In this document: piece by piece, positions 41,552-53,120 of the stretch
Numbering within the stretch: the first letter of the stretch is position 1
Layout of the letters: each line of letters begins with the position of its first letter
Assembly (NCBI GenBank): GCA_963808235.1
Contig: CAWEEQ010000004.1
Span: 3,392,001-3,456,000, forward strand
Origin: an uncultured delta proteobacterium
GTDB taxonomy: Bacteria; Desulfobacterota; Binatia; Binatales; Binataceae
Reading direction: 5' to 3'
DNA: 64,000 nucleotides
The notes under the pieces: model-generated
Database searches by the model: none
Seen by the model: only the letters and a program-made list of their open reading frames with translations
What the model was told of the DNA's origin: nothing
Program-made: the position numbers and the translations under genes

Positions 41552-42468
41552 GAGATCCTCACGCGCGGATCGATCGCCGCATAGACGAGGTCGGTAGCCA
41601 TGTTCACGACGACGTAAGTCATCGCGAAAGCAAGGACGCATCCCTCGACTAGGGGATAATCGCGCGCACCAATCGCCCCAATCATCAGGCGGCCCAGACC
41701 CGGCCACGAAAATATCATCTCGGTAATGAGCGTCCCGCTGAGCAGCGCACCCATCTGAAGTCCGATGATCGTAACGACCGAGGTGAGCGCGTTGCGCAGA
41801 CCATGGCGGACCAGCGCGGCGCGCTCGCTCAGGCCCTTGCTGCGGGCGGTGCGCATGTAATCGCTCTCACGCACGCGAATGAGGCTCTGGCGCAGCATCC
41901 GTGCGAGGATCGCGGCGAGCGCGGTGCCGAGCGTGACAGCCGGCAGGACAAGATGCGCGAAACCGCCGCGTCCGGTGAGCGGTAGCCAGCGGAGATCGAG
42001 CGAGAACAAAATCATCAGCAGAGGGCCAAGATAGATGTGCGGCACCGAGATGCCGACGATCGCGAAACCCATCGCGCCGAGATCGCAGGCGCCGCCCGGA
42101 TTGGAGCCCGCAATAATGCCGAGCGGAAACGCGATCAGTATCGCGACCAGCATTCCCGCCGCAGCAAGCTCGATCGTGGCGGGAAACCGCTCGACGATCA
42201 GTTGCGAAACGGGCCGGCGATAGGAGGTCGATTCGCCGAGGTCGCCGACCGTGAGCCCGCCGAGATACGACAGGTACTGGCTGAGAATCGGACGGTCGAG
42301 ACCCATCTGATGACGCATCGCGACAACGTCGGCGGGCGCCGCGCTCTCACCGAGCATCGCGACCACCGGATCCCCGGGGACGAGATGGATGATCGCAAAG
42401 GTCAGCGTCGCCACGCCGAGTGCGACCGGCACCAGCGCGAGCAGGCGACGAGCGAAGAACTCGATCAC
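41548..42468 (-). CDS. Peptide ABC transporter permease (DppB/OppB-like)
   Basis: PGDP, GLDRP, DYMRTARSKGL, FSWPGLG, RDYP, DPRVR. Confidence 0.9.
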   Translation of the reverse strand: MIEFFARRLLALVPVALGVATLTFAIIHLVPGDPVVAMLGESAAPADVVAMRHQMGLDRPILSQYLSYLGGLTVGDLGESTSYRRPVSQLIVERFPATIELAAAGMLVAILIAFPLGIIAGSNPGGACDLGAMGFAIVGISVPHIYLGPLLMILFSLDLRWLPLTGRGGFAHLVLPAVTLGTALAAILARMLRQSLIRVRESDYMRTARSKGLSERAALVRHGLRNALTSVVTIIGLQMGALLSGTLITEMIFSWPGLGRLMIGAIGARDYPLVEGCVLAFAMTYVVVNMATDLVYAAIDPRVRIS

Positions 42469-44027
42469 TGCGACTCCGCCATGCGCGGGGTCGTCAACGT
42501 GAGCGTCGCGAGGGAGCGGAGACTGCCGTTCGGATATGCGTCGAAGCCGACCAGGCGGCGGTTCATGACGGCGACGTTGTCCACCCACCAGAGTGAGACG
42601 TACGGCAAATCTTCGGCGGCGAGCTGCTGCACTTGTGCATAAATCTTCGCGCGCTCGGCGGGATCGAGCGTACGCATGCCGGCTTCGACCAATTGATCCA
42701 TCACGGGGTTCGAATAGAAGCCTCGATTCAATCCCGGCGGCGTCTTCTTCGAATCGAAAACCATGTAGTAATGATTCGGATCGTTGATTCCGACCCATTG
42801 GAGCGAAGTGAGATCGAAATTTCCCTTCTGAACATCGGCATAGTAGGTAGGGAAATCGAGTGCTCGAATAGTCAGTGCGATACCAACCTTGCGGAGCATC
42901 GCCTGAAACACCTCGCCATCGCGAGAGCCCTCAGGGGTCGTCTTGTATTCGAAGCTGAGCGCGCGCATCCCATCGGGACCCGCCGGATAGCCAGCCTGAT
43001 CGAGCAGTTGGCGCGCTTTTTCCGGATCATAGCTATAGCCAGTTACCGCGCCATAGTATGCCCAATTCTCCGGAGATAGTAGTCCAGTCGCGACGCGCGC
43101 AGTGCCTCGCAGCTTCGTACTGACTATTGTCGCGCTATCGATCGAATAGGCAATTGCGCGCCTCACGCGGAGGTCGCGCAGCCGGGGATCACGGAAGTTG
43201 AATGATACGTACCTGTAGGTGGTGCCCGGAGTTTTGCTGATCGCCAGGTCCTTGTGCGCCGCAAGCCACGGCAACACATCGTCCTCAATATTGTTGCCCG
43301 AGAAATCGCAAACGCCCTCTGCCAGTTCGAGTGCGCGCACGGTCGGGTCGGGCACGACCTTAAAGAGAATCGATCGAGGTACGCCTTCCGGATGTGGAAA
43401 ATATGGATTGCGGAGGAGAGTCGCAGACTCATCGCGGATGTAATCAATCATCTGAAACGGCCCGCTGCCCGGAGGCGCGGCGCTATCGCTCTTCGCCGGT
43501 AGCGGAGTGCCATAGGGTATTATCCCCAGCGTCGCCAACTCCAGCGCGGGCGCATAGGGATTCCCTGTCGTCATGACGATTGTGTAATCGTCGGGCGCCT
43601 CGATCGACTTCAATTCCTCGATACTGCCGCGCTTGGGCGAAAGCGATTCGGGCGCGAGAACCGAATCGTAAGTATATTTGACGTCGCGCGAGGTCAGTGC
43701 GCGACCGTCACCGAAGCGCACGCCGTGACGCAGATGAAAAACAATTTCGGTTTCAGATGGACGCTCGATACTCTCGGCCAGGTAGCCGGCGAATTGGCCG
43801 TTGCGATCGGCCTTCACCAGCGAGTCGAAGATCAGCTCGTTCACCCGCGACGAGGTGGCGTCGGTCGCAAAGCGCGGATCGGTTGACGGCGGCGAGTTTT
43901 CAATGTCGACTTGGATCGTTCCCGGCGCGCGAGGAGCGCGCGAGTCGTCGCATCCGGAAAGCGCGACGATTGAGACCGCCGCGATGACCGTTCCCAGCAA
44001 GCGCATCGGAGCAGTCTTTTTGCTCAT
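42465..44027 (-). CDS. Peptide/nickel ABC transporter substrate-binding lipoprotein (family 5)
   Basis: Lipobox LSGC; F.LRHGVRF, DVKYT, GSGPF, VRRAIAY; start approximate. Confidence 0.88.
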   Translation of the reverse strand: MSKKTAPMRLLGTVIAAVSIVALSGCDDSRAPRAPGTIQVDIENSPPSTDPRFATDATSSRVNELIFDSLVKADRNGQFAGYLAESIERPSETEIVFHLRHGVRFGDGRALTSRDVKYTYDSVLAPESLSPKRGSIEELKSIEAPDDYTIVMTTGNPYAPALELATLGIIPYGTPLPAKSDSAAPPGSGPFQMIDYIRDESATLLRNPYFPHPEGVPRSILFKVVPDPTVRALELAEGVCDFSGNNIEDDVLPWLAAHKDLAISKTPGTTYRYVSFNFRDPRLRDLRVRRAIAYSIDSATIVSTKLRGTARVATGLLSPENWAYYGAVTGYSYDPEKARQLLDQAGYPAGPDGMRALSFEYKTTPEGSRDGEVFQAMLRKVGIALTIRALDFPTYYADVQKGNFDLTSLQWVGINDPNHYYMVFDSKKTPPGLNRGFYSNPVMDQLVEAGMRTLDPAERAKIYAQVQQLAAEDLPYVSLWWVDNVAVMNRRLVGFDAYPNGSLRSLATLTLTTPRMAESQ

Positions 44028-44093
44028 CCGCACCATCGACTTCGCCGATACTAGCAGGATTTGCATCGTCCTTTCGCTCACTGCGAAGTCCAA

Positions 44094-44612
44094 ATGAATC
44101 AAGATTGGCGCACGAAAATCAGGCTCATCCAGGGCGATCTCACCGACGCCGATGCCGACGCGATCGTCAACGCTGCGAATAACGAACTGATCCTGGGCGG
44201 CGGCGTGGCCGGCGCGATTCGGCTCAAGGGCGGTCCGGCGATTCAGGAGGAATGCAACCGAATCGGCGCGATCGCGCTGGGCGAAGCGGCGATCACGAGT
44301 GCGGGGCGCCTTCGCTCGCGGCACGTGATTCATGCGGCGAGCATGCGGCTCGGCGAAGCGACCTCGGAGGAGAATTTGCGCGCGGCGACTCGAAACGCGC
44401 TGATGAGAGCGCGCGAAAATTCCCTCAAGTCGATTGCCTTCCCAGCCATCGGCACCGGCATCGCGGGTTTTCCGATCGAGCGATGCGCGCCGGTGATGCT
44501 GGAGGAAGTGCGCACGCATCTTGAGGGTCCGACCACGCTCAAGCGCGTAGATTTCGTGCTCTTCGATCGCCGCTCGCTGGAAGTATTTGAGCGGGCATTC
44601 GGCAAGATTTGA
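44094..44612 (+). CDS. Macro domain protein (O-acetyl-ADP-ribose deacetylase/YmdB-like)
   Basis: GDLT, AIVNAAN, GGGVAGAI, AFPAIGTGIAGFP. Confidence 0.92.
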   Translation: MNQDWRTKIRLIQGDLTDADADAIVNAANNELILGGGVAGAIRLKGGPAIQEECNRIGAIALGEAAITSAGRLRSRHVIHAASMRLGEATSEENLRAATRNALMRARENSLKSIAFPAIGTGIAGFPIERCAPVMLEEVRTHLEGPTTLKRVDFVLFDRRSLEVFERAFGKI

Positions 44613-44621
44613 GGATCACCA

Positions 44622-44672
44622 CGGCAATAAAATTGAAATGCTGCATTCATTGGAGTGTAATGCGCGAGTGAT
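44622..44672 (+). promoter_or_regulatory. Pho-box-like tandem heptamers with 11-bp period
   Basis: CGGCAAT, TTGAAAT, CATTCAT, GTGTAAT, GAGTGAT at 44622, 44633, 44644, 44655, 44666; each matches CTGTCAT at 4-5 of 7 positions. Confidence 0.4.
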
Positions 44673-44769
44673 TTGATGAATTCGGAAAAGCGCGCGATTA
44701 TTATGCGCGCGATGGTGGATGTGCGGTCGGATGGATGACAGCGAGCGGCAGGGACGTTACCTTCTATCC

Positions 44770-46284
44770 ATGCGGCTCGGCGCAATCGACGTAGGTTCCA
44801 ACTCCGTTCACATGATCGTGGCCGACGTCGGCCGCGACGGACATCTCGAAGTCGTTGACCGCGTGAAAGAAATGGTGCGGCTCGGCCGGCGCTCGTTCAC
44901 GACCGGCCGCCTGACCGCGGAATCGATGGATCTCGCCGTGCGCGCACTCACGAACTTCAAGCGCCTGGTCCGCGTGCGTCGCGTCGAGCGTTTGCGCGCA
45001 GTCGCCACCAGCGCGGTGCGCGAGGCGCGCAATCGCGCTGAGTTCATCCGCAGGATCAAGCGCGAAACCGGCATCACGGTGGAAGTGATATCGGGACTCG
45101 ACGAGGCGCGACTCATCTTCAAGGCCGCGCGTCATGCGCTCGGGCTCGACGGCGGACCTCATCTGCTGGTCGACGTCGGCGGCGGGAGCGTGGAACTGGT
45201 GCTGGTGCGCGACGGGCGCCCGCTCTGGATGCGCAGTGTGAAGCTCGGCGCGGCGCGTCTTGCCGAGCGTTTTCTGACCGACGATCCTCCGTCGCGCGCA
45301 GAGCTCGACCGGCTCGAGGCGCATCTCGAGCGCGCGATTGGTCCTCTGATGCGCCGCTCCCGGCGCGAGGGTGTGATCCGCGCGATTGGCACTTCGGGAA
45401 CGATCAATACACTGGTCGCGATGGCGCGATCGTCGCGCGGCGAAGAGCTCGGACGACTCCATGGCGCGACCGCATCGGCCGGCGAAATTTCCGATCTGAC
45501 TCGCGACCTGGTAGAGGCGAACGCCGCACTACGGGTCGACCTTCCCGGCATGGATGCCAAGCGCGCCGACCTGATGCCCGCTGCCGCGGTGCTGGTGAAT
45601 TTTATATTGAAGAAGTCCGGCGCGCCGGAGCTGGTCGCATGCACGTGGGCGCTGCGCGAGGGCGTATTGCTCGGGCTCGCGCACAAGATCGATGCGCACT
45701 CGGCTTCCGACGCGCGGCGCCGCTCGGTCGGCGCGTTGGCGGGGCGCTTTGCGGGCAGCAACGATCACGGTCTCCAGGTGGCGCGGCTTGCGCTGAAGCT
45801 GTTCGACGCGACCGCGCCGGTTTTGGGCCTGCCGAAGTCCTCGCGAGAACTGCTTGAATTCGCGGCCTTATTACATGATATAGGTCACGCGATTGATCAT
45901 GACCGGCACAATCGCCATTCTTACTACCTGATTAAGAACGCGGAGTTGTTCGGCTTCGAACCTGACGAAATCGAGGTCATCGCACAGGCTGCTCGCGGGC
46001 ATCGCAAGCAGGCCCCGAAACTCGATTCGCCCGATCTGAAACCGCTCAGTCCCGCCAAGCGCCGGGTGGTCAGGGGTCTCGCCGCGATTTTACGAGTCGC
46101 CGACGCGCTGGATCGAAGCCACTTCGGTGTGGTTAAAAATATTGAGGTCCGGTATTCTCCGGGCCGCATAATCGTCGGAGTCGATTCGAAGCGCGAGAAG
46201 GCCGACCTCGAACTATGGACATGCGAGAGAAGGACCGATCTCTTATCGAGGCTGCTCGACCGCCAGGTGGTTCTGCAACGCTAG
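44770..46284 (+). CDS. ppx: Ppx/GppA exopolyphosphatase with C-terminal HD domain
   Basis: AIDVGSNS, VATSAVREA, DVGGGSVE, ALREG, LLHDIG. Confidence 0.93.
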   Translation: MRLGAIDVGSNSVHMIVADVGRDGHLEVVDRVKEMVRLGRRSFTTGRLTAESMDLAVRALTNFKRLVRVRRVERLRAVATSAVREARNRAEFIRRIKRETGITVEVISGLDEARLIFKAARHALGLDGGPHLLVDVGGGSVELVLVRDGRPLWMRSVKLGAARLAERFLTDDPPSRAELDRLEAHLERAIGPLMRRSRREGVIRAIGTSGTINTLVAMARSSRGEELGRLHGATASAGEISDLTRDLVEANAALRVDLPGMDAKRADLMPAAAVLVNFILKKSGAPELVACTWALREGVLLGLAHKIDAHSASDARRRSVGALAGRFAGSNDHGLQVARLALKLFDATAPVLGLPKSSRELLEFAALLHDIGHAIDHDRHNRHSYYLIKNAELFGFEPDEIEVIAQAARGHRKQAPKLDSPDLKPLSPAKRRVVRGLAAILRVADALDRSHFGVVKNIEVRYSPGRIIVGVDSKREKADLELWTCERRTDLLSRLLDRQVVLQR

Positions 46285-47078
46285 AACTCGGCTCTGTCTC
46301 TCCAAACGGTCACGCCTCCCCGACAGAGGACCTCATCAAGCCGTCTGCGTCCAAGCCCGCCCCGAAGACGCTGCTCGAAACCCCGCATCCTTATCCCGGC
46401 CGCCTGATCGCGGTGGAGGGAATCGACGGCTCCGGCAAATCGACGCAGTTGCTGCTGCTTGAACGATGGATGCGCTCGCGCGGATACCCGGTGCATTTCA
46501 CCGAGTGGAATTCGTCGCGCCTGGTGCGGCATTCGATGCAGCGCGGCAAGAAAAAGAATCTGCTGACGCCGACCACGTTCTCGCTCCTGCATGCGGTTGA
46601 TTTCGCCGATCGGCTCACCTATCAGATCCTGCCGCCGCTGAAAGCTGGCATGATCGTGCTCGCCGATCGCTACGTGTACACCGCATTCGCGCGCGATGTG
46701 GCGCGCGGAGTTCATCCCGAATGGGTGCGCGCCGTCTATAGTCCCTCGCTGCGCCCCGATCTGACCCTCTACTTCCGCGTGCCGATCGACATTTCGCTCG
46801 AGCGCCTGCTCTCGGGCCGCGCCAAGCTGAAGTACCACGAAGCCGGAATGGACGTCGGTCTGTCGGCAGATCCGGTCGAGAGTTTCCGGATGTTTCAGAG
46901 CCGGGTGCTCGAGATCTACGATCAACTCACCGTGGAATTCGGGATGCGCCCGATCGACGCGGCCGCCGAGATCCCCGATCAGCAGAAGGTGGTGCGGAGC
47001 ATGGTCCAGGAAATTCTCCGCGACTACGATCGCAAAAGAGCGAATGGAAAAAATGGCATCACGTCACATCCGCGCTAA
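46215..47078 (+). CDS. Thymidylate-kinase-like protein A (intact P-loop); true start uncertain, probably after 46284
   Basis: EGIDGSGKST, DRY; non-canonical TEWN and TAFARD motifs. Confidence 0.85.
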   Translation: MDMREKDRSLIEAARPPGGSATLELGSVSPNGHASPTEDLIKPSASKPAPKTLLETPHPYPGRLIAVEGIDGSGKSTQLLLLERWMRSRGYPVHFTEWNSSRLVRHSMQRGKKKNLLTPTTFSLLHAVDFADRLTYQILPPLKAGMIVLADRYVYTAFARDVARGVHPEWVRAVYSPSLRPDLTLYFRVPIDISLERLLSGRAKLKYHEAGMDVGLSADPVESFRMFQSRVLEIYDQLTVEFGMRPIDAAAEIPDQQKVVRSMVQEILRDYDRKRANGKNGITSHPR

Positions 47079-47811
47079 AAACTGGTACGGACATGGGCTG
47101 CCGTATCTCGCGAAGAAGCGCCTCCCGGGTCACTTGATCGCGATCGAAGGCACCGACGGCGTCGGCCGCTCTGCGCAGATTCAGCTGCTCCGCCCGTGGC
47201 TCGAACTCGAAGGCTATGCGGTCAGCAACACCGGATGGACGCGCTCGCCGCTGCTCTCCGACACCATCAATGAGGCCAAGGCCGGGCATCAACTGACCGT
47301 CACGACGTTCTCGCTGCTCTACGCCGCCGACTTCGCCGATCGGCTCGAGCACGAGATCCTGCCCGCCCTGCAAGCCGGGTTTATCGTGATCGCCGACCGG
47401 TATATGTACACCGCGTTCGCACGTAACAGCGTGATGGGCGCTGATCCGGATTGGACCCGCGAGTTATTCGGGATGGCGCTGGTGCCTGACCTCGTCTTCT
47501 ACCTCGATATCGACGTCGAGACACTCATTCCCCGCGTCATCATGGGCAAGGGAATGGACTACTGGGAATCGGGGATGCATCTCGCGCTCGGCACCGATCT
47601 GTTTGATTCGTTCGAGCGCTACCAGAGCCGGCTGATCGATGAATACCGGCGGCTCTCAGATGAATTCGGCTTCGTCTCGATCGACGCGCGCCGTCCAATA
47701 GAAGAGGTCCAGGCCGAGCTCCGCGAGCACATCGCGCAATACCTGTCTGGCGCGGCGGCGAAATCGCGCCCTGACCCGGGCGATACCAGCGCGCCGGTGC
47801 GCAAGGAATAG
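47044..47811 (+). CDS. Thymidylate-kinase-like protein B (variant P-loop)
   Basis: EGTDGVGRSAQ, DRYMYTAFARN; paralog of the upstream gene. Confidence 0.85.
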   Translation: MEKMASRHIRAKNWYGHGLPYLAKKRLPGHLIAIEGTDGVGRSAQIQLLRPWLELEGYAVSNTGWTRSPLLSDTINEAKAGHQLTVTTFSLLYAADFADRLEHEILPALQAGFIVIADRYMYTAFARNSVMGADPDWTRELFGMALVPDLVFYLDIDVETLIPRVIMGKGMDYWESGMHLALGTDLFDSFERYQSRLIDEYRRLSDEFGFVSIDARRPIEEVQAELREHIAQYLSGAAAKSRPDPGDTSAPVRKE

Positions 47812-47814
47812 TCA

Positions 47815-48891
47815 GTGGCAGAGCCATCGCCAGCCAATGCGCCGGTGCGCAGGGTGACGCTTTATCCCGGCGAGACCGTCGCCGATGCGGCCCGCAAGGC
47901 AATCGCATTCGGCGTCGAGTCGATGAGCCTCAACCAGGCCGCGGCCGAGAGCGGCGACGCCGAGCCACTGCATCAGCTTCGGGTCGCATCGCGGCGGCTG
48001 CGCGCATCGATCGAGCTGTTCTCCACAGTCATCTACGCGGGCCAGCTGAAAATCTACCGCCGCGACATTCCATGGATTCAGGGACAGGCGGGCGCGCCGC
48101 GCGAATGCGACGTGACCTCTGCGCTGCTCAAAGATCGCGCCGCGAAGATCGATCCGCAGCTTAGAGAATCGATCGCACCGCTGCTCGAAGCGCTCGACGC
48201 GCGTCGCAAATCCGAGCATGCGGTCCTTTATGAATCGCTCGCCTCGAAACGCTTTCACAGCCTCATCGCTAAGATGTCGCGGCCCGCGATCAAAAAAGTT
48301 GCCGGCTCGCGAACGCTGGGCGCCGCGGCGGCCCAACTGATTCGCACCATCGCGCGCAGTGCGATGCGTTTCGGCGCTACCCTCGACAACCAGGCGCCCG
48401 CCACCGCTTTTCACAAGCTCCGGGTACGAATCAAGCGTCTGCGCTATGCGCTCGAGATACTCAAGCCGCTCGGCGGCAAGCGGCACAAGAGAACTCTCGC
48501 CCGGCTCGAGGAATTGCAGGAAAGGCTCGGGCTGTATCACGACGTTGTGGTCGCGTCGGCGTGGCTGCGCCAATATGCGGAAACGTCCGGCGCACCGCCC
48601 AAAACGATTCTCGCCGCCGGCGCGCTGATTCAATCGCTCGCCAGCCGGGAAGCCAGGCTTCGCCGTCGATGTATCAAGGCATGGCGCCGATTCGAGCGCT
48701 CCGAGGCGATGCGCGACACGCTCGAAGAGATTCGCCGCGCGGGCAGACTCGCGCTGGTGCCGGTCATGTCGCCCGATCCAAATCAGGATCCCGGCGATGC
48801 GCACGACGCGGAGTCCGCACCTCACGAACTCAACGGCGAAACCACACGCAATTCAAATGGCTCGCACTCCGCGACGGACATCACCGCATGA
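47815..48891 (+). CDS. CHAD domain protein (polyphosphate-binding)
   Basis: LHQLRVASRRLR, FHKLRVRIKRLRYALE, LQERLGLYHD. Confidence 0.9.
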   Translation: MAEPSPANAPVRRVTLYPGETVADAARKAIAFGVESMSLNQAAAESGDAEPLHQLRVASRRLRASIELFSTVIYAGQLKIYRRDIPWIQGQAGAPRECDVTSALLKDRAAKIDPQLRESIAPLLEALDARRKSEHAVLYESLASKRFHSLIAKMSRPAIKKVAGSRTLGAAAAQLIRTIARSAMRFGATLDNQAPATAFHKLRVRIKRLRYALEILKPLGGKRHKRTLARLEELQERLGLYHDVVVASAWLRQYAETSGAPPKTILAAGALIQSLASREARLRRRCIKAWRRFERSEAMRDTLEEIRRAGRLALVPVMSPDPNQDPGDAHDAESAPHELNGETTRNSNGSHSATDITA

Positions 48892-48904
48892 TTCGTAAAC
48901 CCTC

Positions 48905-49405
48905 ATGATGCTCTACATACTGCGCCACGCCACCGCCGAAGAAGCGGCCTCGAGCGGCGACGACGGCGCGCGCAAGTTGTCCGAACGTTCCAAGGAAAAG
49001 ATGCGCGGGGCGGCCGCCGGGTTGCGCGCGATGGGTCTCAAGTTCGATACGATACTGACCAGCCCGCTCGCGCGCGCGACCGAAACCGCGGAACTCGTCG
49101 CCAGTGCGTACGACAACTCTCCGCCGCCGCAGGTGATGCCCGCGCTCGCCACCGGCATCGCCGCGACCGACGCGGTGTCGGCATTACGCGCTTTCGCCAA
49201 GCATGAAGAGGTGATGATCGTAGGCCACGAGCCGCAGCTAAGCGCGATCGCATCGATCCTGCTGACCGGCGCCAGCGACGTGGTTCATATGAAGCTCAAG
49301 ACCGGCGGATGCATCGCGATCGACCTGCCCGCACGCTTCGACCGCGGCGGCGGCGAACTGCGCTGGATCCTAACCCATCGCCAACTCCGCCAGATGCGCA
49401 AGTAG
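48905..49405 (+). CDS. sixA: Phosphohistidine phosphatase SixA
   Basis: LYILRHA, SPLARA.ETA, VGHEP. Confidence 0.9.
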   Translation: MMLYILRHATAEEAASSGDDGARKLSERSKEKMRGAAAGLRAMGLKFDTILTSPLARATETAELVASAYDNSPPPQVMPALATGIAATDAVSALRAFAKHEEVMIVGHEPQLSAIASILLTGASDVVHMKLKTGGCIAIDLPARFDRGGGELRWILTHRQLRQMRK

Positions 49406-49452
49406 CTCTCCCGCCCCGGCGGGAGTACACCGACTGTCCGCGGCTCGCGTGT

Positions 49453-49961
49453 CTATGACACCAAAGGGACCGAGCTAGTAAAAACTTTGAGCCACGTCCT
49501 ATCGGACACGGTAAGGCCGACCGGATCGCGATGGGCTAAAATCACAAATACGCCAGATAACCCGTCCCAGTGTTGCGGTTCCCCGTACTTTCACCTTAAT
49601 AGGCTTCCGCATTTCGCGCCCACCCCACTTTTTCAGAGACCAGAGCTTTTGCGCCCGTTGCATTTGTTGCAAGCGGTTGCAAGATTTTCCTCGCTGTTGG
49701 CCCCGCCGGTTGAAAAGGCTTCGACATGATCGATCACGCCCCATAGCTCGTCGAAGGAGCGGCGCGCCGTCCCGCGTGGCGTGGGCGAAGAAGTACGCCA
49801 GTGGCTCCATTCCATCCGGCGTTCGTCATCTCGCGTTCCAGCAACCGCAACACCGGCCCAAGATGACTGGCCGGTTACACCACCGGCAAATCCAACGGTC
49901 CGCGCCGGCACAATATGGAAAACTCGCGATCCTTCGGTATCAGCGGTCGTGACTTGCCCAT
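49453..49961 (-). pseudogene. HNH endonuclease with multiple frameshifts
   Basis: Stitched frames read RD.WICRWC...IDHVEAFSTGG.NSEENLATACNKCNGRKS; ends approximate. Confidence 0.7.
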
Positions 49962-50139
49962 CGATTACCCGGCTTTCTTTTCCATGCGATGAGTTCTGGC
50001 GGAAAGGCTTATAGCAGATTCCACGTTGCTGCGACTGTGGTAGTGGGCAAGAAATTGTTGGGCAAAGCCGGTGCGGGACATCTGCGCGGCGCGACTGTCG
50101 ACGCGCCGCACATCTGATGCGCGCGCGTGACGCCCCAAC

Positions 50140-50631
50140 CTATCCGCCTAAATCAACTTCCAGACTCTCGACGCGTACCCCTGCCTGCTCGAATCTGATC
50201 ACCAGCTGGCATCCACTCGTCTTGAGCGTCAGTGCGTATGCCCCCGGGCTCCGCTGCGTCGCACTTATCTGCTCGACCGTCTGGCCCTTCAGTGATGCGA
50301 GCGCCTTGTTCAGCTCCGCGAGCGACGCCGCCACCTCGCGGCCGCGCGGCGTCTTCATGAATAGCGCGTTGAGCGATAGCTCCGCGCCGGGCCCGAACAA
50401 TCGGCGCACGCGGCCGCTGGTCAGCGCGACCTCGACGATCGCGCCAAGCCGCGCCTGCAGATTGGCCGGCACCTCGAGCGTATCAATTGCAGTTTTGAGC
50501 GCGAGATAAACCTCGCGCGCCTCGGGGTCCGCGGTCGCGTCGAGGAAGGCCTGGATCTGCGGAATCAGGATGTCGTGCTGAAGACTATCGAGCGTTATCG
50601 ATTCGCCCGCAGGCGTGTCGTCGCTCGGCAT
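50140..50631 (-). CDS. Hypothetical protein, third gene of the sir-cysH operon
   Basis: 163-aa ORF starting 8 bp after cysH; host-like codon usage; ends in LGG. Confidence 0.75.
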   Translation of the reverse strand: MPSDDTPAGESITLDSLQHDILIPQIQAFLDATADPEAREVYLALKTAIDTLEVPANLQARLGAIVEVALTSGRVRRLFGPGAELSLNALFMKTPRGREVAASLAELNKALASLKGQTVEQISATQRSPGAYALTLKTSGCQLVIRFEQAGVRVESLEVDLGG

Positions 50632-50639
50632 CGATCAGC

Positions 50640-51470
50640 CTACGATTTCGTATGCCCGTCGCCGTTATTGCCGAGCAGCGCCGCCAGCTCATGCTCGAAA
50701 CCGCCGGTCTCGATCGCGCAGTGCATCCCGCATTCCTTGGGCGCGCCAGTCTCCCACCACCATCTGCCGTCGCGAGCTTCCTGGCCCTCGCCGACCGCCC
50801 GCGTGCATGGCGCGCATCCGATCGACTTGTAGCCCTTGTCGTAGAGCGCGTTATACGGCACGTCGTTGGCGCGGACGTAATCCCAGACCTCATCTTCCTG
50901 CCAATCAGCCAGCGGCGCGAGCTTCACGATACCGCCGTGATCGTGGTCTATTTCGATCTTCCGAATGTTTGACCGGGTCGCCCACTGATCGCGGCGCAGG
51001 CCCGTCACCCACGCGCTGTAATTCATCAGCGCACGGCGCAGCGGCAGCACCTTCCGAACCTGGCAGCACAGCAGGCGCAGGTTCACGTCTTTGTAAAAAA
51101 GATTGTTGCCGTGCTTGGTGACCATCTGTTGCACGACCGAGGTGTCGGGCATGAAGATCTCGACCTGGATTCCGTAGCGCTCGCGGTACTTGTCGATTAC
51201 GTCGTAGGTTTCCTGCGGCATCCGGCCCGTGTCGATCGTGAAAACCCGGATGTTCGGATCGATCTTGTGCGCCATGTCGATCAGCGCGCAGCCGTCAACC
51301 TGGAAGCTGCAGCAAATCGCGAGCTCTTTGCCGAACCGATCGATCGCCCACGCGAGCACTTCCTGCGGCTCCTTGTCGTCGAGCTCGACCGCGGCTTCGC
51401 CCGCTTCGAGTTCGTCCATGATAAGGCTCAGCTCGGGTTTTTCGAATTGCGCTTGCGGTGTTGCGGCCAT
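50640..51470 (-). CDS. cysH: APS/PAPS reductase, [4Fe-4S]-type
   Basis: IDTG, CC..RKV.PL, TGLRRDQ, SIGCAPCT, ECGMH. Confidence 0.93.
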   Translation of the reverse strand: MAATPQAQFEKPELSLIMDELEAGEAAVELDDKEPQEVLAWAIDRFGKELAICCSFQVDGCALIDMAHKIDPNIRVFTIDTGRMPQETYDVIDKYRERYGIQVEIFMPDTSVVQQMVTKHGNNLFYKDVNLRLLCCQVRKVLPLRRALMNYSAWVTGLRRDQWATRSNIRKIEIDHDHGGIVKLAPLADWQEDEVWDYVRANDVPYNALYDKGYKSIGCAPCTRAVGEGQEARDGRWWWETGAPKECGMHCAIETGGFEHELAALLGNNGDGHTKS

Positions 51471-51488
51471 GGCGAAGTCCTTGCGGGT

Positions 51489-53120
51489 TCAGGCGGCGGC
51501 ATCGGCGCCGGTTGCTACGTTTCCACTCGCGATCGAAATCAAGTCGTCATCGGAACTGCGCACGCAAAAGTGCGCGAACGTTTCATTGCTCTCGCGGCGT
51601 TCGAGATATGAGCCGAATAGCCGCGATACGTAATCCTCGACCATCGCGCTCGGCACCCGGCGCAGCACCGGCTTGCCGATGCCCGCGTCCTTGCCCAGTC
51701 CGCCGCGCAGGATAATGTCAAATGCCTCCAGCGGCTCGCCGTTGGGTCCGCGCCCGGTGGTGCCTTGCAAGCCGATATCGCCGGTCCAATGCTGCGCGCA
51801 CGCATGCGGGCATCCGTCGAGATTCACCTTGAGTCCGCCCACCTGCTCGCCAAACTGGTTCACCAGCCGCTCGATAATCGTCGCGAGCTTGGTCTTGGTC
51901 GGCGTGACGGCATAGTTGCAATGCGGATCGCCGATACATCCAATCGACGACGCATAGAGTCCGTTCGCGTTGAGCGGAAACCCGATCTCGCCGATTCTCG
52001 CGATCACCTCGTCGAGTCGCTCGCTCGGAATTCCGCTCACGATAAAATTCTGCCGCCGCGTCAGCCGGATATCGCCGCCGAACGTCGCCGCGACCGCCGC
52101 AATCGCGCGCATCTGCGCCCCACTCATCAAGCCGAGGTAAACCGGGAAGCCGACGTAGTGTTGCCCGGCCTGCTTCTGTTCGCTGATGCCCATGTGATCG
52201 CTGTCGGTCTCGGGAATCGGCATCGCGTCTAGGCTTTCCAGCGCATACCCAAGCTTCGCTTCGACCAGCCGGCGAAATTCCTCCGGCCCGTAATCGTCGA
52301 TCATGAACTTGAGCCGCGCCTTCACCCGCGAGATTCGGTACTCGGTGGTCCCCTTCCACACGTCGATAATCGCGCGCATCACCGGCATCGCCTGCTCGCG
52401 CGTGATGAAGACGCCGAGATGCCGCGACAAGCGCGGCGTCGACGATTGCCCTCCGCCGACGCGCACCGCGAAGCCCTCGCGCCCGTCCTTCACCATCCCG
52501 ACCAGCGCCACGCAATTGATCTCAGGCGCGTTGCACTGATGCTGGCACGCCGCGATCGTAATCTTGTGCTTGCGCGGCAAGTCCGAGTACTCGCGATTGC
52601 CGTAGAAAAATCCCGCCGCCTCGGCGACCAGCGGCGTCACGTCAAAGAGTTCTTCCTTATCGACGCCGGCCACCGGGCATCCGGTGATATTGCGCACCAC
52701 GTCGCCGCATCCGCCCATCGAGGTCAGCCCGACGCTTTTCAGCTTCTCGAGAATCTCCGGAAACTTGTCGAGCGTGATGTAATGAAGCTGGATATTTTGC
52801 CGCGTGGTCAGCTCACCCTGATCGCGTCCGTAAATCTCCGAGATTTCGCCGATCACCCGCAGCCCGTCGGCGCTCAGGATGCCGCTCGGAATCTTCACCC
52901 GCAGCATGAACGTGCCGATCTTCGGCTTGTCGTGATACATCCCGAACCACTGCAGCCGCACAATATCTTCCTCGGGAAGCTTTTCGTATGAGGTCGTCGC
53001 CAGCCGGTCCCATTGACCGGTCAGCTCGGTGGGAAAAAGCTCGTGCTTCAAGCGCTCGACTGAATTGCGCTTGCGCACCATTTCCCAGGATTGCGGTTCT
53101 TTTCTAGGCACTTGAATCAA
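51489..53120 (-). CDS. sir: Ferredoxin-type sulfite (nitrite/sulfite family) reductase
   Basis: TTRQNIQLH, LPRKHK, RARLKF-like motif, CIGDPHC and GCPHAC siroheme/Fe-S ligands; operonic with cysH. Confidence 0.88.
   Translation of the reverse strand: MIQVPRKEPQSWEMVRKRNSVERLKHELFPTELTGQWDRLATTSYEKLPEEDIVRLQWFGMYHDKPKIGTFMLRVKIPSGILSADGLRVIGEISEIYGRDQGELTTRQNIQLHYITLDKFPEILEKLKSVGLTSMGGCGDVVRNITGCPVAGVDKEELFDVTPLVAEAAGFFYGNREYSDLPRKHKITIAACQHQCNAPEINCVALVGMVKDGREGFAVRVGGGQSSTPRLSRHLGVFITREQAMPVMRAIIDVWKGTTEYRISRVKARLKFMIDDYGPEEFRRLVEAKLGYALESLDAMPIPETDSDHMGISEQKQAGQHYVGFPVYLGLMSGAQMRAIAAVAATFGGDIRLTRRQNFIVSGIPSERLDEVIARIGEIGFPLNANGLYASSIGCIGDPHCNYAVTPTKTKLATIIERLVNQFGEQVGGLKVNLDGCPHACAQHWTGDIGLQGTTGRGPNGEPLEAFDIILRGGLGKDAGIGKPVLRRVPSAMVEDYVSRLFGSYLERRESNETFAHFCVRSSDDDLISIASGNVATGADAAA

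Follow-up and report, generated by a model that had tools for sequence, protein, structure and literature searches.

A putative bacterial PPK3: tandem thymidylate kinase paralogues within a polyphosphate operon of a Binataceae genome

Five co-directional genes in a 64,000-nucleotide (nt) stretch of the genome of a soil-dwelling member of the Binataceae (assembly GCA_963808235.1; C4:3392001-3456000, hereafter the window) are identified here as a polyphosphate (polyP) cluster, in which two tandem proteins of the thymidylate kinase (TMK) type, A and B, are flanked by an exopolyphosphatase gene (ppx) on one side and by genes for a CHAD-domain protein and a SixA-type phosphatase on the other. The cluster is very probably a polyP operon organised around a bacterial PPK3, i.e. 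a heteromeric kinase composed of two exapted TMK paralogues, with A as the catalytic (c) and B as the non-catalytic, regulatory (r) partner. This reading is favoured because the gene set and the ppx-c-r-CHAD order match those of Sulfolobus, and because of the scores against the solved structure 2plr, the phylogenetic trees, a separate tmk gene, the motif states, the linkage of the pair in other genomes and its conservation within the genus.

The heteromeric polyP kinase PPK3 has been characterised in Sulfolobus acidocaldarius (Hofmann et al., Journal of Biological Chemistry (JBC) 2026, PMC12995831; 2024 preprint 10.1101/2024.08.28.610084), and what is said of it here follows the available main-text passages of those sources. 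In that archaeon the operon runs sixA (saci_2017), ppx (saci_2018), cPPK3 (saci_2019), rPPK3 (saci_2020) and CHAD (saci_2021), with saci_2019 and saci_2020 annotated as deoxythymidine monophosphate (dTMP) kinases (PMC12995831). Saci_2019 is a polyP kinase, Saci_2020 is inactive alone and raises the activity of Saci_2019, and together they form an alpha2beta2 complex; dTMP kinase activity is absent from both and present in Saci_0893, the true dTMP kinase (PMC12995831). The enzyme (SaPPK3) is reversible, with an approximately 50-fold preference for polyP + ADP -> ATP, and polyP synthesis by it requires a high ATP/ADP ratio together with ATP recycling (PMC12995831). PPK3 is described as being built of exapted dTMP kinase paralogues, and the basic cleft of cPPK3 is proposed to hold polyP (PMC12995831).

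An earlier reading of the window from its letters (the sequence-only reading) had proposed that the pair is a distinct polyP-linked kinase within a module that makes, binds and breaks down polyP, and it knew of no biochemical characterisation. The latter statement is out of date, given the 2024 preprint and the 2026 JBC paper on the Sulfolobus enzyme. The former agrees with the membership of the pair in the PPK3 clade, which includes a Sulfolobus enzyme of biochemically demonstrated polyP kinase activity. As the idea reached from the raw sequence had already been published for Sulfolobus in 2024-2026, the finding is sound rather than new. No characterised bacterial PPK3 was found in a literature search of Creative Commons (CC)-licensed PubMed Central and bioRxiv, and the window pair is, as judged by its sequence, a new bacterial member of the published family.

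Results

Gene organisation

The five genes lie at the following positions of the window:

44719-46284, plus strand: ppx/gppA, exopolyphosphatase of the Ppx/GppA family, domain III/HD at the C terminus, 521 amino acids (aa) from the first ATG (Pfam/NCBIfam)
46215-47078, plus strand: TMK-like A, putative catalytic-type PPK3 subunit (cPPK3 orthologue), 287 aa (homology, tree, motifs)
47044-47811, plus strand: TMK-like B, putative regulatory-type PPK3 subunit (rPPK3 orthologue), 255 aa (homology, tree, motifs)
47815-48891, plus strand: CHAD-domain protein of the polyP-granule-binding kind, 358 aa (PF05235, 136.8 bits)
48905-49405, plus strand: SixA-type histidine phosphatase, 166 aa (TIGR00249, 81.2 bits against a cut-off of 74.5; PF00300, 41.7 bits)

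In the order ppx-A-B-CHAD-sixA, ppx overlaps A by 70 nt and A overlaps B by 35 nt, and gaps of 3 nt and 13 nt separate B from CHAD and CHAD from sixA. The catalytic-type gene is followed directly by the regulatory-type gene, and every gap or overlap within the operon, the co-directional ppx, CHAD and sixA partners included, is at most 70 nt. The five packed genes ppx(HD)-tmkA-tmkB-CHAD-sixA seen in the sequence-only reading are borne out by the open reading frame (ORF) list together with the Pfam and NCBIfam matches. The ppx gene itself also stands, but not the start given to it: position 44770 is an internal Met, residue 18, of an ORF that opens at 44719. Its product matches PF02541 Ppx-GppA (215 bits), PF21447 Ppx-GppA_III (99 bits) and PF01966 HD (47 bits); on TIGR03706 it scores 273 bits, under the cut-off of 307, and Ppx and GppA are therefore not separable with TIGR03706. 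In the genome (4.59 Mb in 4 contigs, 93% complete) it is the sole PF02541 match, and the CHAD gene of the operon is the sole CHAD match.

A begins with an N-terminal tail of approximately 60 aa, rich in Pro, Ala and Ser (window 46215-46400), the first 70 nt of which overlap the 3' end of ppx; there is no such tail on the Sulfolobaceae-like c proteins. In eight same-genus loci the start (MDMREK) and the end of the tail are conserved and the middle is variable, with in-frame indels, and identity among same-genus loci is 53-65% in the tail versus 93-95% in the core. The operon also differs from that of S. acidocaldarius in the position of sixA, which lies at the 3' end in the window and upstream of ppx in the archaeon. 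Meanwhile, the window ppx encodes an HD domain, whereas the ppx ORFs of two Sulfolobaceae-like reference loci (L099 and L102) are 411-417 aa, approximately 100 aa shorter, as compared by ORF length.

Relationship of A and B to PPK3

Against the Sulfurisphaera/Sulfolobus tokodaii chain 2plr/5h70, A scored 192.3 bits (E 1.3e-55) and B 156.9 bits (E 7.5e-45), compared with 53.4 and 51.4 bits, respectively, for the best canonical TMK. This chain is a homologue of the PPK3 catalytic subunit (Hofmann et al., JBC 2026, PMC12995831). An AlphaFold2 model of B, with a model confidence (pLDDT) of 91.7, gave the S. tokodaii st1543 chains as its best Foldseek matches, ahead of canonical TMKs; the TM-scores were 0.80 when scaled to the query and 0.88-0.91 when scaled to the target. 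Among solved structures, the best relative of A and of B alike is this st1543/STK_15430 (PDB 2plr, 4nzy, 4rzx and 5h70; deposited as dTMP kinase), whose motifs EGIDGSGKS, TEWNSS and DRYIYTAYARD agree with A. It represents the catalytic type only, as a stand-alone structure, and no solved heteromer was found in the PDB copy searched.

Reference loci were taken from nine Sulfolobaceae-like genomes retrieved in a search of genomes in the phylum of G041. The c-type ORF of L099 is identical to the 2plr/5h70 chain at 213/213 positions, and the gene order of L099 and L102, ppx-c-r-CHAD, is that of the window's ppx-A-B-CHAD. Like SaPPK3, the window pair consists of tandem dTMP kinase paralogues, catalytic type then regulatory type, in an operon with ppx, CHAD and sixA and with a canonical dTMP kinase elsewhere in the genome; in both systems a catalytic-type subunit with an intact P-loop, DRX motif and basic cleft is encoded next to a regulatory-type subunit without the basic residues. 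The two systems differ in that the window pair is bacterial (Binataceae) and SaPPK3 crenarchaeal.

A 1:1 complex of A and B, predicted with alignments built for this analysis (A4, A5), scored 0.40 against 0.00 for the best control, with at least 92% contact agreement between runs and a partner pLDDT of at least 79. Among the cases used to set the mark for such predictions, 58 of the 80 solved complexes passed it, as did two of the 110 mismatches; only seven of the former scored 0.60 or less, and so did both passing mismatches. The prediction gives weak support to an A-B complex, and its pass may be due to likeness to solved TMK homodimers.

The sequence-only reading had in addition drawn a link to PPK2. 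Neither A nor B matched PF03976 (PPK2) at E <= 0.01, and descent of the pair from PPK2 was rejected on that ground; in the absence of a match, the analogy with PPK2 is one of function and not of descent. The two-domain class II PPK2 (e.g. P. aeruginosa PA3455) resembles the enzyme proposed for A+B in joining an active module to an inactive homologous oligomerisation module and in preferring polyP-consuming nucleotide phosphorylation (PMC12995831). Unlike A+B, it belongs to another family (PF03976), is one fused chain and has its ADP and polyP sites swapped (PMC12995831).

Comparison with the housekeeping dTMP kinase

The genome has three Thymidylate_kin matches: A (67.5 bits), B (75.3 bits) and a third gene at C4:2861895-2862476. 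On TIGR00041, the dTMP kinase equivalog with a cut-off of 83.25 bits, this third gene reaches 178 bits, A falls short of the cut-off (69.8 bits) and B just exceeds it (88.8 bits); holB follows the third gene. Alignment supports the replacement of the dTMP kinase motifs that had been read in both paralogues (TEWN/TGWT and DRYxYTAFAR[D/N]). The sequences are TEWNSS and DRYVYTAFARD in A, TGWTRS and DRYMYTAFARN in B, and THEPGG and DRYSDSTTAYQG in the canonical TMK of the genome, which is 25% identical to A and 30% to B. Canonical dTMP kinases share with A and B the fold, the P-loop, DR(Y) and the lid arginine, but they carry TREPGG-type and DRYxxSxxAYQG dTMP-site motifs, form a separate clade (100/100) and, in this genome, adjoin holB. 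A search for a canonical tmk elsewhere in the genome had been suggested and was successful; the pair is not the only tmk, and the claim that it is not the housekeeping enzyme holds.

Phylogeny

Trees were built from the TMK-like ORFs of the nine Sulfolobaceae-like loci, 73 PPK3-type loci from other, named public genomes (those among the matches listed, best 600 stretches), three same-genus copies and seven canonical TMKs, using FastTree (171 rows) and IQ-TREE in a quick run (71 rows) and a careful run on the identical 71 rows. Neither the trees nor the motif counts below include copies of the window (L002, L003, L006) and of L027 (L096, L097), loci in which r is split or truncated (L044, L046, L082), L095, which is ambiguous, seven of the ten same-genus loci, for redundancy, and three r rows in which fewer than 150 residues matched (L085, L087, L088).

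The canonical TMKs split off in all three trees, with support from 99 (FastTree) to 100/100 (careful IQ-TREE), and the comparison of both proteins with TMK that the sequence-only reading had called for places A and B in the PPK3 clade, apart from the canonical dTMP kinases. The second-position (r) proteins formed one clade in all three trees, B and the Sulfolobaceae-like r proteins included (support 97 to 99/97, the latter in the careful IQ-TREE), and A fell among the first-position (c) proteins in each. When rooted on the TMKs the c rows did not form one clade, being grouped in only 12% of bootstrap trees.

Two records stand apart. The only r-clade row with a Walker-A Lys, DRY and a c-like SEWKTS is that of L078 (a Candidatus Gastranaerophilales record), which is also the first branch in the r clade and may represent the condition that preceded the Lys-to-Arg change described below. 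L052 (a Candidatus Binatus sp. record) carries a c-r pair of another subclade, which groups with Acidoferrum records, and no ppx, CHAD or sixA was found within 6 kb of it; on these sequences, more than one entry of the c-r pair into the Binatus lineage seems to have occurred.

Motif states of the two subunits

A has the Walker-A sequence GSGKST, DRY, the lid Arg and TEWNSS in place of the TREPGG type; as in the catalytic subunit of PPK3, the ATP-site residues are kept, the dTMP site is not conserved and the basic residues are conserved. B has GVGRSA at Walker-A, a change of Lys to Arg, keeps DRY and, like the regulatory subunit of PPK3, is without the conserved basic residues. Both the Walker-A Lys and the DRX Asp-Arg are present in 84/84 c rows, A included. 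Among the r rows, 70/80, B included, have Arg at the Walker-A Lys position with Asp-Arg kept, 1/80 (L078) has Lys with Asp-Arg, and 9/80, all Sulfolobaceae-like, have Asp-Gly with a P-loop K (4) or R (5). At 22 basic columns, defined as those where 70% or more of the c or r rows have K/R and so chosen by conservation rather than by mapped cleft position, A has K/R at 21/22 and B at 10/22; at the five most c-specific columns (A R105, K113, K114, R202 and K206) the corresponding positions of B are S, A, G, a gap and D, none of them basic. Judged by these motifs, A and B are not equivalent: A appears to be of catalytic type, and B has the Walker-A Lys-to-Arg change and seems to miss most of the basic cleft residues.

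The paper explains the inactivity of rPPK3 by the DRX arginine, which "is replaced in rPPK3s" (PMC12995831). This feature fits only the nine Sulfolobaceae-like r rows (DGY), DR being kept in 71/80 r rows, and the loss consequently seems to mark one lineage and not to define the family. The passages of the JBC and preprint main texts available here contain no mention of the Walker-A change in the regulatory subunit.

The r pocket is strongly conserved in the 68 non-Sulfolobaceae r rows, with P-loop conservation of E 100%, G 100%, x, D 100%, G 79%, x, G 100%, R 100%, S 85% and T 94%, DRX conservation of D 100%, R 100% and Y 94%, and the lid Arg at 100%. Mean pairwise identity is 0.49 for r and 0.58 for c, and across the 68 loci the c and r pairwise identities correlate at 0.84, a value that is descriptive only because the loci are mutually related. 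In L085, L087 and L088 (Vicinamibacterales/Acidobacteriota) the second protein lacks both the P-loop (e.g. DGVNGAAVET) and DRX (APY), so that the regulatory subunit also exists in a third state, with complete degeneration of these motifs.

Linkage of the pair in other genomes

In 69 of the 73 listed PPK3-type loci, c is followed directly by r on one strand. Within 6 kb of the pair, 49 loci have one or more of Ppx, CHAD and SixA (Ppx in 45, CHAD in 26 and SixA in 27), which answers positively the earlier question of whether homologues are linked to ppx and CHAD; as several loci lie on short contigs and the profiles were home-made, these counts are lower bounds. PPK1 was near the pair in one of the 73 loci and PPK2 in two. 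The ppx-A-B-CHAD-sixA arrangement is not a chance juxtaposition, the A-then-B order recurring as it does in the other genomes. Closer to the window, the pair is present in 21 of 24 same-genus genomes (a tally that includes the unpublished G018 and G023) and, by the same query, in 4 of 16 other genomes of the class. Record titles among the matches listed place family members in at least about a dozen bacterial phyla and several archaeal groups.

Fused and multidomain relatives were also seen. In P0122 c and r are fused in one chain, and in P0135, P0142, P0143 and P0188 a c-type domain and a degenerate r-type domain precede a Ppx-GppA domain III/HD domain; GxGK[ST] and DRY are kept in the c domain of all five, and their second-domain P-loops are degenerate. 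On domain content, these proteins provide a putative gene-fusion link of PPK3 to the HD part of Ppx. Eight further proteins of 507-1276 aa (P0164, P0168, P0170, P0171, P0181, P0183, P0190 and P0201) combine an intact catalytic-type PPK3-like domain with an APH/DUF2252 kinase-like region, to which an MFS transporter domain is added in five and an SPX domain in P0164; the SPX and MFS domains suggest a connection with phosphate sensing and transport. In P0191 (2575 aa) and P0208 (1610 aa) a catalytic-type PPK3-like domain stands beside an inorganic pyrophosphatase (InPase) domain, and P0191 has in addition an ADP-ribosyltransferase domain of the polyvalent-protein type.

Coexistence with PPK1 and PPK2

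The window contains no ppk1 or ppk2, as had been observed from the sequence, but the suggestion that the pair stands in place of ppk fails at the level of the genome, which encodes both. Its single PF02503 (PPK1) match is on contig C2 (182.9 bits) and its single PF03976 (PPK2) match is at C4:781739-782437 (226.4 bits). Among the 24 same-genus genomes, with G018 and G023 again counted, PPK1 is present in 23, PPK2 in 21 and both together with the pair in 17. For 50 PPK3-bearing genomes of the 73 listed loci, a hand-picked set of unestablished completeness, PPK1 was found in 17 and PPK2 in 34; 14 have both, three PPK1 alone, 20 PPK2 alone and 13 neither. The anti-correlation with ppk that had been put forward for checking is not general in this sample. 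The published account is that most PPK3 genomes are without PPK1 and PPK2, and in-situ replacement of PPK1 by PPK3, or the reverse, has been proposed (PMC12995831); the window's genome differs from that description in that both enzymes accompany the pair.

PPK1 lies approximately 10-50 kb from the PPK3 operon, on one contig, in 12 of the 24 same-genus genomes (G001-G008, G011-G013 and G020), which is a loose linkage and not an operon. In a genome from the class of the window's genome (G026:C128:75249-78062) the c-r pair has a PPK2 gene directly upstream, and in two Acidobacteriota loci (L036, L039) PPK2 is within 6 kb of it.

Genomic surroundings

A macro-domain gene of the ADP-ribose binding/hydrolase type (44061-44612, plus strand) ends 106 nt upstream of ppx. 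On the minus strand, a family-5 solute-binding protein of a peptide-type ABC transporter is encoded upstream (42465-44519), and a 163-aa ORF without a Pfam match, a 3'-phosphoadenosine-5'-phosphosulfate (PAPS) reductase and a sulfite/nitrite reductase are encoded downstream (50140-53120); these minus-strand genes are ordinary neighbours. A promoter and terminator scan of 43900-50000 gave one promoter-like and one terminator-like site, both within ppx and no more than the yield from shuffled sequence. The public sequencing runs listed as containing the stretch are all of soil-metagenome DNA, with no RNA run among them.

Discussion

If the cluster is a PPK3 operon, A would be the catalytic subunit, with an intact P-loop, a DRX arginine clamp and a conserved basic cleft for polyP, and B, by analogy with Saci_2020, would be a non-catalytic partner that oligomerises with A and raises its activity. 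Together they would transfer phosphate reversibly between polyP and ADP/ATP. The enzyme would mainly draw ATP from polyP, as an ATP buffer, and would work at CHAD-coated granules beside the genome's only Ppx, for hydrolysis, its only CHAD protein, for granule binding, and SixA. Since PPK1, the usual synthase, and PPK2 are also present, we infer that PPK3 would be mainly polyP-consuming.

Several observations weigh against this reading. In raw identity, B resembles the c proteins of the Sulfolobaceae-like set (38.8-39.9%) more than the r proteins of that set (27.6-28.9%), and the latter are found on a very long branch of the trees (1.13 to 3.17 changes per column); the putative assignment of B to the r type is drawn from the trees, the gene order and the non-Sulfolobaceae r rows. 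The c and r labels used in the counts were given by the best phmmer score to A or B and are partly circular, although the tree bipartition is independent of them. B has DRY, so that the replaced DRX arginine of the published regulatory subunit is not seen in it, and its predicted inactivity is left with the Walker-A Lys-to-Arg change and the missing basic residues as its only footing. No ppx, CHAD or sixA was found within 6 kb in 24 of the 73 listed loci. Finally, the coexistence of PPK1 and PPK2 with the pair makes the proposed physiological role and direction of the reaction tentative.

The state of B bears on a variant of the proposal, in which the enzyme is of the PPK3 type but B is not dead and has a working or nucleotide-sensing site, giving two kinds of active or allosteric site in the complex, or a nucleotide specificity other than that of SaPPK3 (e.g. 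for GDP or nucleoside monophosphates). The DRX Asp-Arg kept in B and in 70/80 r-type rows, the conserved pocket of the 68 non-Sulfolobaceae r rows and a constraint on r nearly equal to that on c would all agree with such a site. It is nevertheless improbable, as the Walker-A Arg is invariant in those 68 rows, B is without the c-specific basic residues, and in P-loop kinases a Walker-A Lys-to-Arg change usually abolishes phosphoryl transfer. The Sulfolobus rPPK3, moreover, is inactive alone (PMC12995831).

It is very unlikely that the pair replaces ppk as the polyP synthase of the organism. The lack of ppk in the window, the published idea of in-situ replacement with most PPK3 genomes lacking PPK1 and PPK2 (PMC12995831), and the 13 of 50 genomes with neither enzyme would speak for replacement, but PPK1 and PPK2 are encoded in this genome and, respectively, in 23 and 21 of the 24 same-genus genomes, and SaPPK3 makes polyP only at high ATP/ADP with ATP recycling (PMC12995831). 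It can scarcely be credited that A and B are dTMP or nucleoside-monophosphate kinases of an ordinary or redundant kind whose genes just happen to adjoin polyP genes, even though both match Thymidylate_kin, B is just past the TIGR00041 cut-off and close homologues carry the name "dTMP kinase" in public sources. A dTMP kinase reading was rejected, given the canonical tmk beside holB, the replaced dTMP-site motifs in A and B and the clade apart from TMKs; the ppx, CHAD or sixA linkage in 49/73 listed loci and the lack of dTMP kinase activity in Saci_2019 and Saci_2020, with Saci_0893 having it (PMC12995831), likewise argue against it.

The assignment of A and B to PPK3 has consequences for annotation. 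Close homologues are named "dTMP kinase" or "thymidylate kinase" in public sources, and no PPK3-specific model in Pfam or NCBIfam matched A or B; that B passes the cut-off of the dTMP kinase equivalog makes the mis-annotation of PPK3 systematic. Furthermore, the survey qualifies two main-text statements of the paper, as worded in the passages available: the regulatory subunit usually keeps the DRX Arg, with the Walker-A Lys changed to Arg instead (70/80 rows), and PPK3 often coexists with other PPKs (in the 50 genomes, PPK2 in 34, PPK1 in 17 and neither in 13). The spread of the family, over at least about a dozen bacterial phyla and several archaeal groups, is also broader than the "a few bacteria" of that paper (PMC12995831).

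The Walker-A arginine of B and the frequent coexistence of PPK1 and PPK2 with PPK3 are both worth following. As a tentative suggestion, considerably less likely to be right than wrong, the second subunit in most lineages, that of the window included, may be no decayed kinase but a conserved nucleotide-binding pseudokinase, defined by an invariant Walker-A Arg and by an Asp-Arg clamp and lid Arg that are both intact, that senses ATP/ADP and sets the direction or rate of the polyP <-> ATP exchange, in which case the loss of the DRX Arg in Sulfolobus would be a derived peculiarity. If this were true, PPK3 would be a polyP kinase with a built-in energy-charge switch that acts beside PPK1 and PPK2, and not their replacement.

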